Origin: a virus
Taxonomy: Duplodnaviria > Heunggongvirae > Uroviricota > Caudoviricetes
Strand: one strand, 5' to 3'
DNA: 45,162 nt
IMG/VR virus record: IMGVR_UViG_2684623059_000002
Shown: piece after piece, positions 4,623 to 35,249 of the stretch
How the letters are laid out: each line of letters starts with the position of its first letter
How positions within the stretch are numbered: the stretch's first letter is position 1
Program-made: the position numbers and the translations under genes
Notes under the pieces: generated by a model
What the model was told of the DNA's origin: nothing
Databases searched by the model: none
What the model saw: the letters and a program-made list of their open reading frames with translations, nothing else

Positions 4623-5030
4623 TTATCTTTTGTTTGTTCGTTGACGGGCTTTTAATAACTCTTCAAAGAGTTTGTTGAAATTTTTTACTCGGGCGCGCAT
4701 CTCGGTGAGCTGAGCATCCTGTTCTGATTCAGGCAATGCATTAAAAAGCTCAAGGAGCTCATGTTCTTTGGGGGATAGAGCAACTGGCTCCTCAATAGGT
4801 GGTGATGGCTGCTTGTCTTCATCGCCAAATAGAATCCATGTTGGCGAGCACTGCAGTACTTTGCTGAGGGCAAAAAGATTCTTTCCTGTAGGTTCGCTAT
4901 CATCCCGTTCCCATTGTGAAACCGATACATGAGAAATTTTCAGGGCTTTAGCAAGAGACCTTTGGGTGTATTTGAGGTTTTTTCGGCGATATCTAATGCG
5001 TTCGCCAATGGTTAGATTTTTTGTATCCAT
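4623..5030 (-). CDS. dicA: DicA-like HTH-XRE prophage repressor (135 aa)
   Basis: Near-identical to recalled E. coli DicA (…GERIRYRRKNLK.TQRSLAKALKISHVSVSQWER…); divergent from the Cro-like gene. Confidence 0.9.
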   Translation of the reverse strand: MDTKNLTIGERIRYRRKNLKYTQRSLAKALKISHVSVSQWERDDSEPTGKNLFALSKVLQCSPTWILFGDEDKQPSPPIEEPVALSPKEHELLELFNALPESEQDAQLTEMRARVKNFNKLFEELLKARQRTNKR

Positions 5031-7558: not shown

Positions 7559-8320
7559 ATGGAGACTGTTTTTGACGCACTGAAAGCAATGGGAAAAGCC
7601 ACATCCATAGAACTTGCGGCGCGACTTGATGTCAGTCGTGAAGAAGTGCTTAACGAACTATGGGAACTGAAAAAGGCTGGCTTTGTTGATAAAAGCGCGT
7701 ACACCTGGCGTGTGGCTGATAACAACGTTCAGCAGGAACAGCCAGCGCAGGCAGAACTGCCGGAAGAAACCACTACAGCAACAGCAGCGAAAATCTCAGA
7801 GTGCGATTTAACCGCGACGATTGAACAACGCGGACCACAAACGGCTGATGAGCTGGCTACGCTGTTCGGTATCACATCACGCAAAGTGGCTTCAACGCTG
7901 GCAATGGCAATCAGCAAAGGTCGCCTGATTCGTGTAAATCAGAACGGTAAATTCCGTTACTGCCTGCCGGGCGATGATTTACCAGCAGAACCGAAAGCCG
8001 CATCGGTAACGGGAAATGGTGGTAAAGCCTTTCCTCAGCCAGCGGGTGTTGCGTTACCAGCGCCGGAAGCTGCAATACAGGAAGAAATTAAAACAGAAAC
8101 TGTGGCGGACATTGTGCAGTCGTTGCCATCGTTCACCAAAACGCGAGCCGATGACCTGACTTTACCATCGCTGCATCTGGCAAACCGCGAACTGCGCCGG
8201 GCAAAAAACCGTGTCCAGAAGTGGGAGCGAGTCTGTGCCGCACTGCGGGAGCTGAATAAACACAGGGATATTGTCCGACAGATTGTCGATTCCTCCAGTC
8301 GCGTTGTGTTGGAAAAGTGA
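7559..8320 (+). CDS. Hypothetical phage protein with N-terminal winged-helix-like region (YdaW-like position)
   Basis: ORF with GGAG RBS before METVFDALK; conserved position after the replication genes. Confidence 0.55.
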
Positions 8321-8327
8321 GGCGTTT

Positions 8328-8744
8328 ATGGGAAACGTTTTTACACCTGAATACAGGAAGCAACTGAAGGCGCGCATTGTGGAGCTGGTACAGCGGGATG
8401 GGCGGAAAACACGTAAGCAACTGGAGGATGAAACCGGAGCAACGAGGCACCTGATAGAAGTTCTGGCGAAAGAGCTGGTAGTTAGTGGCGCAGTATATGG
8501 TTCAGGACATGGAATATTTTCTTCGGAGCAGGCTCGTAAGGACTGGATAAAAGCCTGCAAAAAAATGTCGAGAGCGGCAGTGAAAAAGAAGAGCGACCCT
8601 GACCTGATTTATTCATTGCCAGATGGCGAAATACGTCGTTACAACAGACGACAGAACATAATTTGTCTCGAGTGCCGCCAGAGCGAAGCTATGCAACGGG
8701 TGCTGGCTTTCTGGAAGGGAAGTTTGCAGGAGGTGATACTGTGA
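8328..8744 (+). CDS. Hypothetical phage protein (138 aa), basic, CxxC pair near C-terminus
   Basis: ORF with RBS before MGNVFTPEY; nin-region synteny. Confidence 0.5.
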   Translation: MGNVFTPEYRKQLKARIVELVQRDGRKTRKQLEDETGATRHLIEVLAKELVVSGAVYGSGHGIFSSEQARKDWIKACKKMSRAAVKKKSDPDLIYSLPDGEIRRYNRRQNIICLECRQSEAMQRVLAFWKGSLQEVIL

Positions 8745-17517: not shown

Positions 17518-17951
17518 GCAGAGTCGCCGCGATTATCTCCATTCTGGTTATCTGCATCATCGTCTGCCTTTCATGGGCTGTTAATCATTACCGTGATAAC
17601 GCCATCGCCTACAAAGAGCAGCGCGATAAAGCCACATCCATCATCGCTGATATGCAGAAGCGGCAACGTGATGTAGCAGAACTTGACGCCAGATACACAA
17701 AGGAGCTTGCTGATGCTAATGCGACTATCGAAAGTCTCCGTGCTGATGTTTCTGCTGGGCGTAAGCGCCTGCAAGTCTCCGCCACCTGTGCAAAGTCAAC
17801 GACCGGAGCCAGCAGCATGGGCGATGGAGAAAGCCCAGGACTTACAGCAGATGCTGAACTCAATTATTACCGTCTCCGAGGTGGAATCGACAAGATAACC
17901 GCGCAGGTTAACTACCTGCAGGAATACATCAGGACGCAATGCCTGAATTAA
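17514..17951 (+). CDS. Rz: Rz i-spanin (GTG start overlapping the R stop)
   Basis: [31 protein letters not shown]... near-identical to lambda Rz N-terminus. Confidence 0.9.
17713..17898 (+). CDS. Rz1: Rz1 o-spanin lipoprotein embedded in the +1 frame of Rz
   Basis: [20 protein letters not shown] lipobox followed by proline-rich KSPPPVQ; nested within Rz as in lambda. Confidence 0.8.
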
Positions 17952-17992
17952 TCCCTCTGTATCAAAAACGAACTCAATTTGTTGGATAGTGA

Positions 17993-18304
17993 ATGAAAAT
18001 TTATATTGCCGGGCCAATGACGGGATATGAGAACTTTAATCGTGACGCCTTTAATAAAGAGGCAGATCGTTTGTCACGACATGGTCACTCTGTCTTGAAT
18101 CCAGCCACTTTGCCTAATGGTCTGACACAACGTGAATACATGGATATTTGCTTTGCAATGCTTCGTTGTGCTGATGCTATTTTGATGCTTCCTGGCTGGA
18201 AAGCGTCTGCTGGAGCAACTGCTGAGTATCATTACGCATACAAGATGGAGATGCCGGTATTCACTACTCTGAATTACCCGCCAGCTTGTTCCTCTGCAGT
18301 ATAA
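17993..18304 (+). CDS. DUF4406-like protein (nucleoside 2-deoxyribosyltransferase-like fold), moron after the lysis cassette
   Basis: MKIYIAGPMTGYENFNRDAF...ADAILMLPGWKASAGA pattern matches the DUF4406 signature as recalled. Confidence 0.55.
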   Translation: MKIYIAGPMTGYENFNRDAFNKEADRLSRHGHSVLNPATLPNGLTQREYMDICFAMLRCADAILMLPGWKASAGATAEYHYAYKMEMPVFTTLNYPPACSSAV

Positions 18305-18499
18305 AAAATCTCTTTGTTTCTCGTGTGCGACCGTGGTCGCACGCTAAATTCCGCGCTGCATCGTCGCCGTATTCCCGCATTAACCATGACCGTAGCCCGA
18401 CGGGGAACTCCTCTGCGCTAGTGTGCGGAAATAATCAAAAACGATGCACACCGGGGTTTTACCGCGTTTATGATTCGTGGTTTTGTCCTTCATGCTCGC

Positions 18500-18540
18500 C
18501 AGTCCTGTGCGGGGGTGGAAGAAACAGGACTGTTTGTTCA
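18500..18540 (+). terminator. Hairpin plus T-rich tract (candidate plus-strand terminator)
   Basis: 9-bp inverted repeat CAGTCCTGT/ACAGGACTG with 15-nt loop followed by TTTGTT. Confidence 0.35.
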
Positions 18541-18547
18541 GTTATCG

Positions 18548-18952
18548 CTATATTAATGGCTTGTTGTTCTCAACATCTTCCATGTATAAAAGTGTATCAT
18601 CGACGGAGTAGTAGCGTCGTTTGTTATCGTTGACATCGGTAACCCATCGGAATACGCCTGCATTAGCCAGAGTTGTGGTAAATTCGCGGAATGTAGACTT
18701 TCCTGAATTATGAATTCGGGCAGCTTTTTTTACTTGCTCCGGATTCTTGATTATGCTGACTTTTAATAACTCCCTGTTGCCTCTGATTAATAAAGCTTCA
18801 GCATTTACAGTAATAGCTCTGATGTTATCAGTAGCCAGATAGTAAATATAATAAGCAATATTCTGGCGTTTCAGTCCTGAGTAAAACTGTGAAAAGTTAT
18901 GCTCCTTTCTTACTTGTTCAAACATTTCCCGGAGAACATCAACCTGGTCCAT
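18548..18952 (-). CDS. Hypothetical protein, YbcV/DUF1398-like moron on the opposite strand
   Basis: 134-aa ORF on minus strand between lysis genes and cos, same position and orientation as ybcV in DLP12. Confidence 0.55.
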   Translation of the reverse strand: MDQVDVLREMFEQVRKEHNFSQFYSGLKRQNIAYYIYYLATDNIRAITVNAEALLIRGNRELLKVSIIKNPEQVKKAARIHNSGKSTFREFTTTLANAGVFRWVTDVNDNKRRYYSVDDTLLYMEDVENNKPLI

Positions 18953-19071
18953 CAGCGTTATAACCTCTTGTTTGTTTTTACACGGTTAGTTTGCATGATT
19001 AGTTATATCACATCAATCTGGTCAGAGCACACATGAGCGCCGGGTCCTTTCCGGTGATCCGGTAGTTTACG

Positions 19072-19083
19072 GGGCGGCGACCT
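19072..19083 (+). other. cosN cohesive-end site (lambda-type 12-nt end GGGCGGCGACCT)
   Basis: Exact lambda cohesive end sequence followed by CGCGGGTTTTCGCTATTTATGAAAATTTTCCGG, matching the lambda left end. Confidence 0.9.
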
Positions 19084-19120
19084 CGCGGGTTTTCGCTATT
19101 TATGAAAATTTTCCGGGATC

Positions 19121-19219
19121 CATGTCCGGTTTCTCTGCAAGTTAACTATATGAAAAATATAAAAACAGGCTGTCCGTGAACCGGACATGTGCAAAAAACG
19201 GACATGTAAACCGGACATG
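19121..19219 (+). repeat. cosB-like terminase small-subunit binding repeats (CCGGACATG x3 direct plus one inverted) with AT-rich IHF-like spacer
   Basis: Motif at 19181-19189, 19198-19206, 19211-19219 and inverted at 19121-19129, between cosN and nu1. Confidence 0.7.
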
Positions 19220-19266
19220 ACCGGTTTTGTGCTGATTGTGAGGTAAGAGTTTTTGCGAGGTGAGGA

Positions 19267-19776
19267 GTGGCTACGCAGACTGAAGTTGCCAGGCATTTGA
19301 GTCTGACCGATCGCCAGCTTCGCAGATTGCAGAAATTACCGGGTGCCCCGGTCTCGAATAAGCGAGGGCAACTGGATCTGGATGCCTGGCGCGATTTTTA
19401 CATATCGTATCTGAGGAGAAGTAAAAACGATGTGCCTGATGGCGATAGCGAAGACGACTATGAGGAAAAATTGCTTATTGCCAGATGGGAACTGACAGCA
19501 GAACAGGCTGTTACACAGCAGTTAAAAAATGAGGTGTCAAAAGGAAAACTTATTGACACCGGGTTCTGTATTTTTGCCCTCAGTAAGCTGGCAATGGCGT
19601 TATCCAGTACGCTTGATTCCATCCCTTTATCCATGCAACGACAGTTTCCTGATTTAACACCGCGCCATCTTGACCATCTGAAAACCCTTATTGCGAAGGG
19701 GGCAAATCAGTGTGCGCGGGCGGGGGATAAATTACCGGATTTACTCGATGAATATATCAGAGCAACAACTGAATAA
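19267..19776 (+). CDS. nu1: Terminase small subunit (lambda Nu1 homologue)
   Basis: C-terminal region ...FCIFALSKLAMALSSTLDSIPLSMQRQFPDLTPRHLDHLK... parallels lambda Nu1. Confidence 0.9.
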   Translation: MATQTEVARHLSLTDRQLRRLQKLPGAPVSNKRGQLDLDAWRDFYISYLRRSKNDVPDGDSEDDYEEKLLIARWELTAEQAVTQQLKNEVSKGKLIDTGFCIFALSKLAMALSSTLDSIPLSMQRQFPDLTPRHLDHLKTLIAKGANQCARAGDKLPDLLDEYIRATTE

Positions 19777-34727: not shown

Positions 34728-35249
34728 TTATTTAATTATTCCGCATGCCAGTCTTGCGCCTCCCCCCCCCAGAGGAGCAGGTGAATCGGAATGATTATCC
34801 CCTCCGGCATGAATCATGATCGCCCGTTCTTTTATCTGGCTTATTTTTTTTATTTTTGGACTCAGAACCGGGTTTTCTGCATTTCCTTCTGAGTTGACAT
34901 AGAGTGCTGGTAGATCACCCAGATGGCCCTCCGGATTGTACGGCCCAAGATGTTTATTTGTTTGTTCAGGATCATAATGCCCACCGGCAGCAAGAGCTGG
35001 CACTTTTTTTCCATTAATCAGACCGGGATCACAACTGGCATTTTCATGGATATGAAAGCCATGTAACCCTGGTGGCAGTTCTTTCAGATGAGGAGTGAAC
35101 AGCAATCCGTAGCTGGTTTCTGAAATAGTTATTTCCCCTATATTTTTCCCTACTCCTTCTGAGGAAACGAGATTTACAGGGATCGTCATTGTATCAGCCA
35201 TTACGGCTCCACTAAGTAGCGCAGTTACAGCAAGTATTTTTTTTATCAT
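34728..35249 (-). CDS. sodC: Periplasmic Cu,Zn superoxide dismutase (SodC) moron
   Basis: Signal peptide plus Cu/Zn-SOD motifs (GFHIHE..., GGGGARLACGII); located between I and J on the opposite strand. Confidence 0.9.
   Translation of the reverse strand: MIKKILAVTALLSGAVMADTMTIPVNLVSSEGVGKNIGEITISETSYGLLFTPHLKELPPGLHGFHIHENASCDPGLINGKKVPALAAGGHYDPEQTNKHLGPYNPEGHLGDLPALYVNSEGNAENPVLSPKIKKISQIKERAIMIHAGGDNHSDSPAPLGGGGARLACGIIK

Follow-up and report, generated by a model that had tools for sequence, protein, structure and literature searches.

A DUF4406 gene behind the lysis cassette of a lambdoid prophage and its predicted role as a nucleotide N-glycosidase

The viral sequence IMGVR_UViG_2684623059_000002 (45,162 nucleotides, analysed as a whole and hereafter called the window) is a lambdoid prophage that carries, on its plus strand at 17993-18304 and directly behind its lysis genes, a gene with an ATG start for a protein of 103 amino acids (aa) belonging to the domain family DUF4406. 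The protein is predicted to be a minimal enzyme of the N-deoxyribosyltransferase superfamily. As judged from its sequence, it is most likely a (deoxy)nucleoside 5'-monophosphate ((d)NMP) N-glycosidase of the DNPH1/Rcl, MilB or DmtZ type that would act via a covalent intermediate on Glu78 and edit the nucleotide pool; we put the probability of this reading at about one half. It is important to point out that the gene is an uncharacterised member of a known and already catalogued family, not a new kind of system, and that its position behind the lysis genes is its sole unusual feature. RefSeq already lists the protein as 'DUF4406 domain-containing protein' (entries e.g. WP_001555423.1 and WP_000708309.1), and its novelty is therefore that of an uncharacterised member with a specific testable prediction.

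Family membership, fold and predicted active site

A Pfam scan matches the protein to PF14359 (DUF4406) with an expectation value (E) of 3.7e-34 and 117.4 bits, against a cut-off of 22, and residues 1-90 cover positions 1-90 of the 91 in the profile. This hidden Markov model search bears out a preliminary description of the DNA, made from its letters alone, which had called the gene DUF4406-like, and it is as good as certain that the protein belongs to DUF4406 and to the superfamily of the nucleoside 2'-deoxyribosyltransferases (NDTs). The same description had called the product NDT-like, and here the outcome is divided: the predicted fold and a match to PHROG 355 ('nucleoside 2-deoxyribosyltransferase', E 2.8e-45) agree with it, whereas the match to the canonical NDT family PF05014 (Nuc_deoxyrib_tr; 20.7 bits, E 4.7e-4) stays under the cut-off of 28.8, and the sequence points to the chemistry of a nucleotide N-glycosidase over nucleoside deoxyribosyl transfer. 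DUF1937 gives another sub-threshold Pfam match, and no NCBIfam model matches the protein. DUF4406 comprises 10,851 clusters at 50% identity (E <= 1e-3), and the DNA of the window gene is 95-99% identical to that of 37 annotated copies in Escherichia coli. The gene is under strong purifying selection and is no chance open reading frame (ORF): compared with homologues of about 80% identity, nonsynonymous differences (pN) amount to 0.08-0.09 and synonymous differences (pS) to 0.7-0.85 per site, a comparison from which the mis-registered locus L003 was left out.

An AlphaFold2 model of the protein has a predicted local distance difference test score (pLDDT) of 94.4 and a predicted template modelling score (pTM) of 0.87. 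Its core of four strands and four helices is flavodoxin-like, in keeping with the small Rossmann-like protein of the preliminary description, and ends at about residue 91 (strand 89-91), where a low-confidence tail begins. The model and a Foldseek search of the PDB agree on the flavodoxin-like alpha/beta fold of the NDTs; matches with probability 1.00 were obtained for NDTs (2a0k, 6evs), for MilB with CMP, for DNPH1/Rcl with nucleotide ligands and for PA1492/DUF1937 (1t1j). The last of these is a structural-genomics protein to which no function has been assigned, and its fold match therefore adds no functional information. Searching the PDB directly with the protein sequence gave no match, and the profile of the family found marginal NDT matches only (E 0.3-0.7).

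Residue conservation was counted over 139 family representatives clustered at 50% identity. Phe20, Ser72 and Gly74 are present in all 139; Glu78 and Pro37 are kept in 138, Tyr49 in 137 and Gly7 in 135, while Tyr4 is found in 115, with Phe at this position in 18 more. Glu78 and Tyr4 occupy the places of the nucleophilic Glu with which the helix following strand 3 begins and of the strand-1 Tyr, respectively, and a profile alignment puts Glu78 on the glutamate of the GTAFE motif of Leishmania NDT (6qai). Position 53 is Cys in 88 and Asp in 21 of the representatives.

A functional model for this arrangement is provided by human DNPH1, whose crystal structure with dUMP shows the 5'-phosphate bound by the backbone NH groups of Ile29, Arg30, Gly31 and Gly100 and by the hydroxyl of Ser98, while Glu104, hydrogen-bonded to Tyr24, lies under C1' as the nucleophile (PMC10483697). 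The sequences of human DNPH1 and of the NDT of L. leichmannii (LlNDT) that were used in the alignments match those in the PDB exactly over the crystallised regions. Tyr4, Gly7 and Met9-Thr10-Gly11 of the window protein align with Tyr24, Gly27 and Ile29-Arg30-Gly31 of DNPH1, no LlNDT residue being entered for these positions, and Ser72, Gly74 and Glu78 align with Ser98, Gly100 and Glu104 of DNPH1 and with Asp92, Gly94 and Glu98 of LlNDT. The [S/D]-x-G-x3-E spacing is identical in all three proteins, and Gly7-Pro-Met9-Thr10-Gly11 and Ser72-Ala-Gly74 are spaced like Gly27...Ile29-Arg30-Gly31 and Ser98-Leu-Gly100 of DNPH1, so that, by alignment with the contacts of the crystal structure, a DNPH1-type 5'-phosphate site is predicted in the DUF4406 protein. 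A shallow alignment of the family gave fragments only when compared by hhalign with single DNPH1 or NDT sequences; with the deeper alignment of 139 sequences the matches become full-length and stay statistically weak (E 0.03-0.05).

A further indication of the substrate class comes from the residue at the position of LlNDT Asp92. In NDTs an Asp or Asn binds the 5'-hydroxyl, while the hydrolases have small uncharged residues at the same place (PMC12884076). The Asp that canonical NDTs carry six residues before the catalytic Glu is absent from DUF4406, its place being taken by the invariant Ser72, which argues for a 5'-phosphorylated substrate; the argument draws on the published statement. The C-terminal segment with which a canonical NDT completes the base-acceptor site of its neighbour is likewise absent, the fold ending at about residue 91 compared with 137-159 residues in NDTs.

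From these features a mechanism can be proposed. The protein, whose sequence has neither a signal peptide nor a lipobox, would work in the cytoplasm as a functional enzyme with a core of about 90 residues, its family being a pared-down offshoot of the N-(deoxy)ribosyltransferase superfamily. The 5'-phosphate would be gripped by backbone NH groups (Met9-Thr10-Gly11, Gly74) and by the hydroxyl of Ser72, and Glu78, positioned by Tyr4, would attack C1' of the sugar and form a covalent (deoxy)ribosyl-5-phosphate-enzyme intermediate. The base would depart, and water would then free (deoxy)ribose 5-phosphate. Which residue might act as the general acid is uncertain, Asp51 and position 53 being the candidates.

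The known enzymes to which the protein can be compared each resemble it in part. DNPH1/Rcl (PDB 4p5e, 4fyk, 8qhr) has the same fold and the same Tyr...Gly-x-[I/M]-x-Gly and Ser-x-Gly-x3-Glu motifs at identical spacing, but the sequence identity is about 19% and DNPH1 is about 40 residues longer, its C-terminal part supplying Ser128' and Met130' across the dimer. NDTs of PF05014 (L. leichmannii 1f8x, T. brucei 2a0k) have in common with it the fold, the nucleophilic Glu and, on the N-terminal strand, the YxAGP motif, and differ in Asp92 and in an extra C-terminal third. MilB and BcmB (4jem, 4ohr, 4jen), which are CMP or hydroxymethyl-CMP N-glycosidases of about 155 aa, are ribonucleotide-specific and belong to antibiotic biosynthesis; they have no match to the DUF4406 protein at the sequence level.

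Fusion partners, gene neighbours and the sister clade

Domain fusions in other phages suggest what the substrate could be. In mycobacteriophage Baka, gp170 (241 aa) consists of a DUF4406 domain fused to a MazG nucleoside triphosphate (NTP) pyrophosphohydrolase of the DR2231 type, the partner being recognised by a Pfam PRA-PH match at threshold, by PDB entries 2yeu and 5i0m (E 2e-6) and by PHROG 12019 and 671. Two relatives in BFVD, A0A6J5LQ71 and A0A6J5S4N9 (32-33% identity), exceed the query in length and bear the name 'dATP/dGTP diphosphohydrolase N-terminal domain-containing protein'; judged by names and lengths only, they are read as putative fusions. Since NTP pyrophosphatase partners make (d)NMP from (d)NTP, (d)NMP is the predicted substrate, and an enzyme acting downstream of such pyrophosphatases (dNTP to dNMP) would, while phage DNA is being replicated or methylated, irreversibly clear the pool of one particular (d)NMP, which may be non-canonical or modified.

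A precedent for such a coupling is DmtZ of the PurZ0 phages, a dAMP hydrolase/transferase of the NDT superfamily that acts on a dNMP, converting dAMP to adenine, and is either fused to or encoded beside the dATP/dGTP-hydrolysing, Dut-like DutZ (PMC12884076). DmtZ of Ghobes, a Gordonia phage, and of the Arthrobacter phage Wayne is, like the DUF4406 protein, a small phage enzyme of the NDT superfamily with an NTP diphosphatase as its fused or genetically coupled partner, comparable to Baka gp170. Unlike it, DmtZ belongs to another family without a Pfam model, has about 145 aa and serves the synthesis of Z-base DNA; no sign of Z-DNA genes was seen in the window. The probable Ghobes DmtZ is a weak structural match to DUF4406 (BFVD rank 49, E 6e-4).

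A survey of the two nearest genes on each side of DUF4406 at 38 loci or clusters in IMG/VR (150 proteins) revealed no obligate partner gene. DNA methylases are the commonest neighbour family, with five matches (four N6_N4_Mtase and one C5 DNA_methylase), and DnaB helicases come second with three; SSB, replication protein O, RdgC, dCMP deaminase and Tad3, an inhibitor of type I Thoeris, are single cases, and one surveyed neighbour gene, at a locus other than that of Tad3, carries PF18909 (dATP/dGTP diphosphohydrolase). In Pseudomonas phage LESphi3 the gene of a DNA methyltransferase extends into the beginning of the DUF4406 gene (L007 2500-3495 and 3492-4028), and in phage N15 gene 57 (DUF4406) runs 20 nt into gene 58, which encodes a C5 cytosine methyltransferase (L018 6234-7542); these overlaps may reflect a functional link to DNA methylation. 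Some names given to family members in GenBank are doubtful: Arthrobacter phage Shambre1 gp62 and LESphi3 P31_11 are called 'deoxycytidylate deaminase' and mycobacteriophage Porky gp110 'MazG-like pyrophosphatase' (L016 2492-2821, L007 3492-4028, L017 2492-2824), while DUF4406 is the sole Pfam domain in all three.

Among complete E. coli genomes two clades of the gene can be distinguished. The close clade, with at least 95% DNA identity to the window gene, is found in 38 of 5426 genomes, and 16 of its 41 places are on 'plasmids', mostly of about 46 kb. A sister clade with about 60-65% protein identity to the window protein is present in 1332 of the 5426 genomes, its carriers including O157:H7, and lies in the early-right operon just after the replication genes, typically in the order DUF977-DUF4406-DUF4752 with 4-nt overlaps (e.g. 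L012-L014 3609-4569); this placement inside an early operon argues for expression in the lytic cycle. The window has a DUF977 homologue at 8328-8744 (a member of PHROG 142, 'Ren-like exclusion protein') with no DUF4406 gene beside it, and in the N15-like plasmid DUF977 and DUF4752 are adjacent with no DUF4406 annotated between them. The idea that the window gene is a second copy beside an early-region DUF4406 was rejected, there being only one DUF4406 gene in the window. Each phage appears to carry a single copy, placed either in the early region or behind the spanins, and in either place transcribed during the lytic cycle.

Cassette origin, expression and prophage setting

The gene lies in a mobile cassette with defined borders. 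blastn and alignment show that 17900-18530 (+), comprising ~50 nt from the end of Rz, the DUF4406 gene, a hairpin and a 178-bp element, is about 98% identical to plasmid pEC21Z151-46K, the homology beginning ~50 nt before the Rz stop codon and ending after the 178-bp element at 18530, beyond which the flanks diverge. The plasmid has a protelomerase, a CyRepA1 replication protein, SopAB and lambda-like structural genes, which together identify it as an N15-like phage-plasmid, and its DUF4406 gene likewise follows the spanin gene directly. In phage N15 itself the order is gene 55 (spanin), 56 (67 aa), 57 (DUF4406), 58 (the C5 methyltransferase), gp59 and cos; Enterobacter homologues of 80% identity have the same arrangement, and a methylase occupies the same late region in N15-like plasmids and in the chromosomal locus L002. 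The window gene thus shares with N15 gp57 and the N15-like phage-plasmids the position after the spanin and the trailing hairpin, but the window is a lambdoid prophage of the chromosomal type without gp56 and the methyltransferase gp58.

The hairpin, GTGCGACCGTGGTCGCAC, is an 18-nt GC-rich element at 18325-18342 (+) with a 9-bp stem (with flanking bases) and a tetraloop, and occurs once in the window, right behind the DUF4406 gene. In N15-like phage-plasmids of E. coli and Enterobacter it is present in one to four copies per genome, in either orientation, at intergenic cassette borders (e.g. L001 10332, 14711, 17751 and 17971; L018 7562-7579), and the N15 match at 7562-7579 coincides with a stem-loop annotated as a putative terminator (L018 7561-7585). 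It folds stably and has no U-tract; it may be a terminator, an RNA stabiliser or a recombination site. The 178-bp element, the right-hand homology arm of the cassette, is present as a degenerate copy at 18353-18530 (-). The intact element encodes a 58-aa ORF on the minus strand (MRDKPANHKRGKNPVCIVFDY...), of which a 1-nt deletion in the window has left a 37-aa remnant; an ORF at 18286-18633 (+) running across the element was considered as a gene and rejected in favour of this degenerate minus-strand small ORF, the 58-aa form being found elsewhere. Of the 124 lambdoid phage records that the query retrieved, many have the element near cos, although only two of the 124 carry most of the queried stretch including the DUF4406 gene. 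Further copies are at L001 17780-17954 and 19562-19739, L002 8141-8317 and L224 1966-2142, and in an N15-like plasmid an insert of two genes lies between two directly repeated copies, as if the element acted as a recombination arm for cassette exchange. From these sequence comparisons we conclude that the N15-like lineage probably donated the cassette with DUF4406 to the lambdoid prophage, the exchange taking place by recombination in the 3' end of Rz and in the cos-proximal element.

Upstream, the gene is separated from the lysis cassette by a spacer of 41 nt (17952-17992, +). The cassette comprises the lysozyme gene R (16984-17517, identified by Pfam) and, at its end, the i-spanin gene Rz (17499-17951, +; Pfam Phage_lysis, E 1.2e-34), in which the o-spanin gene Rz1 is embedded (17683-17898; Pfam E 4.2e-20), and its Pfam identification bears out the placement of the DUF4406 gene right after Rz/Rz1 in the preliminary description. 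A simple consensus scan of the plus strand from 16900 to the ATG detected no sigma-70-like promoter, and the same scan found no terminator between Rz and the DUF4406 gene, so that the gene is probably read within the late (pR'/Q-dependent) lysis transcript. An Rfam scan of 17900-19400 produced just one spurious sub-threshold snoRNA match. Late co-transcription with the lysis operon, not expression as a moron in the lysogen, is most likely what happens to the gene in the prophage.

The interval between Rz and cos contains only two genes, DUF4406 on the plus strand and a DUF1398 gene of the ybcV/ydfO type on the minus strand (18548-18952; Pfam E 5e-40). The latter is the more moron-like of the two because of its low GC content (0.39) and its opposite orientation; PHROG 413 tags it as 'head protein', which is doubtful in this slot. 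An exact lambda-type cosN, GGGCGGCGACCT, follows at 19072-19083 (+), ~770 nt past the DUF4406 gene and ahead of Nu1 and terminase A, so that in the virion the DUF4406 gene lies at the far right end of the chromosome. The same slot holds bor in lambda and borD-ybcV in DLP12. The position between Rz and cos and the ybcV-type DUF1398 neighbour are shared with these phages; bor, however, codes for a lipoprotein, has a promoter of its own and lies on the opposite strand, whereas the DUF4406 gene runs in the direction of the late operon and its product is predicted to be cytoplasmic. The DUF4406 gene has a GC content of 0.442, and of 0.375 at third codon positions (GC3), compared with ~0.51 for R/Rz, and such atypical composition combined with presence or absence among relatives is what a moron would show. 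The preliminary description had seen in it a gene in a slot for Bor-type morons, and the 'moron' label fits in part: slot, low GC and patchy presence agree with it, while the co-directional position 41 nt behind the lysis genes, the results of the promoter and terminator scan and the nature of the protein, which is not a lipoprotein, do not.

Along the window lie Q, a tRNA array, a NanS-type esterase, holin, DUF1327, R, Rz/Rz1, cos, terminase, head and tail genes in this order. At its left end, an 823-aa early-left protein (59-2530, -) with a C-terminal Rv2179c-like 3'-5' exoribonuclease domain occupies the usual position of a RecE/Exo-type recombination nuclease, and a putative repressor-like gene lies at 4623-5030 (-). 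Antiterminator Q (12405-13094) is followed just downstream by four tRNA genes (anticodons CAT, TTT, TGT and TCC; 13305-13614, +) and by the gene of a NanS-p-type sialate O-acetylesterase (DUF1737 + SASA + DUF6645; 13938-15854, +), as in Stx-type phages. A Cu/Zn superoxide dismutase gene, SodC (34728-35249, -), a classic virulence moron, sits on the opposite strand among the tail genes. The right end carries genes for two type III effectors, a pentapeptide-repeat/SopA-like HECT-type E3 ligase (NleL/EspX-like; 41290-43662, +) and an NleC-type Peptidase_M85, a zinc protease that degrades NF-kB p65 (43916-44908, +), which suggests that the host is probably an attaching-effacing E. coli or a relative.

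Alternative functions and wider significance

Several observations weigh against a (d)NMP N-glycosidase. The alignments to DNPH1 and NDTs are not significant alone, and the residue mapping depends on the fold match together with the identical motif spacing. The general-acid residue of DNPH1, Asp80, aligns with Cys53, and the nearby Asp51, although present in the window protein, is kept in only 64 of the 139 representatives. The protein has no counterpart of the C-terminal segment that completes the site of the neighbouring subunit in DNPH1 (Ser128') and in NDTs, and its substrate binding may therefore differ. A Pfam scan of 45 long homologues found an NTP-pyrophosphatase fusion in none of them, a helix-turn-helix (HTH), DUF551 and a ClpX zinc finger appearing once each. 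A late-operon position is odd for an enzyme of the nucleotide pool, and the promoter scan from which the expression of the gene is deduced is a crude consensus search, so that the gene may yet be expressed from the prophage. Finally, the literature mentions DUF4406 in passing only, as the preliminary description had anticipated in calling its function uncharacterised; neither a functional study of the family nor an assay of any member was found in it.

The most conventional alternative is a genuine NDT that exchanges the bases of deoxynucleosides, either in salvage or so as to shift the balance of the deoxynucleoside pool. Most GenBank labels and the label of PHROG 355 say as much, NDTs are among the top structural matches, PF05014 gives its weak match, and a phage NDT preferring deoxyadenosine has been reported in dZ phages (bioRxiv 10.1101/2025.10.22.683976). 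The score under the Pfam cut-off, the invariant Ser in place of the Asp that binds the 5'-hydroxyl, as in dNMP hydrolases, the missing C-terminal third with its acceptor-base site and fusion partners that yield nucleotides, not nucleosides, together make this unlikely. A small chance may be given to a counter-defence enzyme or sponge that destroys or sequesters, by N-glycosidic cleavage, a nucleotide immune signal or a toxic nucleotide (of the glycocyclic ADP-ribose (gcADPR) type, cyclic, base-modified or a chain terminator). DUF4406 genes are extremely widespread among temperate phages and are in all cases small accessory genes within variable regions, one surveyed locus has the Tad3 gene within two genes, and the fold is used in phage-host conflict by the related NDT-like effector of retron Ec86 (PMC11482910). 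Neighbours of DUF4406 are, however, mostly replication and methylase genes and not known anti-defence genes, matches to TIR and SLOG proteins are weaker than those to NDT, MilB and DNPH1, and no experimental report of such a role was found in the literature. PADLOC-DB has no defence-system family that matches the protein at E <= 1, its library consisting of defence genes and not of anti-defence genes; the defence or counter-defence role raised in the preliminary description has accordingly gained no direct support.

A moron expressed in the lysogen for the benefit of the host, by superinfection exclusion, by abortive infection through nucleotide depletion in the manner of the NDT-like retron effector or as a Bor-like fitness factor, appears improbable. 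It would account for the Rz-cos slot, the low GC and GC3, the patchy presence in E. coli genomes and phage records and the stable hairpin after the stop codon, but that hairpin has no U-tract, no promoter-like site lies upstream, the gene is oriented with the late operon at a distance of 41 nt, the sister clade belongs to an early replication operon with lytic-cycle expression, and neither a signal peptide or lipobox nor a PADLOC match has been found. Least probable of all is that the protein is a helper of DNA methyltransferases which removes a by-product of methylation or a methylated nucleotide, such as S-adenosylhomocysteine or the 5-methyl-dCMP and N6-methyl-dAMP of degraded DNA. The overlaps with methyltransferase genes in N15 and LESphi3, the lead of methylases among the neighbours and the methylase in the late region of N15-like plasmids and L002 favour it; yet most loci, including the window, have no adjacent methylase, the neighbour counts are raw tallies with no background rate, accessory genes cluster in such regions anyway, and the known S-adenosylhomocysteine nucleosidases have a different fold. 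A broader and distinctly speculative extension of the (d)NMP N-glycosidase, to which we would give little credence, is that DUF4406 represents a large unrecognised class of phage nucleotide N-glycosidases engaged in conflict, which would destroy a modified or defence-made nucleotide (an immune signal, a chain terminator, deaminated or methylated dNMPs) before it could poison or give away the replicating phage, and that the rare late-operon copy beside methyltransferases in N15-like phage-plasmids is a second use, protecting newly methylated progeny DNA.

What the finding contributes is a specific biochemical hypothesis for a domain found very commonly among temperate phages: the early-region clade is present in ~25% of complete E. 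coli genomes, and the N15 copy has been present since the first annotation of that phage. The identity of the substrate would decide between housekeeping-type editing of the nucleotide pool and counter-defence. If the prediction is true, it would correct the labels 'nucleoside 2-deoxyribosyltransferase', 'deoxycytidylate deaminase' and 'MazG-like pyrophosphatase' that databases attach to proteins consisting of DUF4406 only, and dNMP N-glycosidases coupled to NTP pyrophosphatases would form a widespread node in the control of phage nucleotide pools, beside DmtZ, Dut, MazG and dCMP deaminases.

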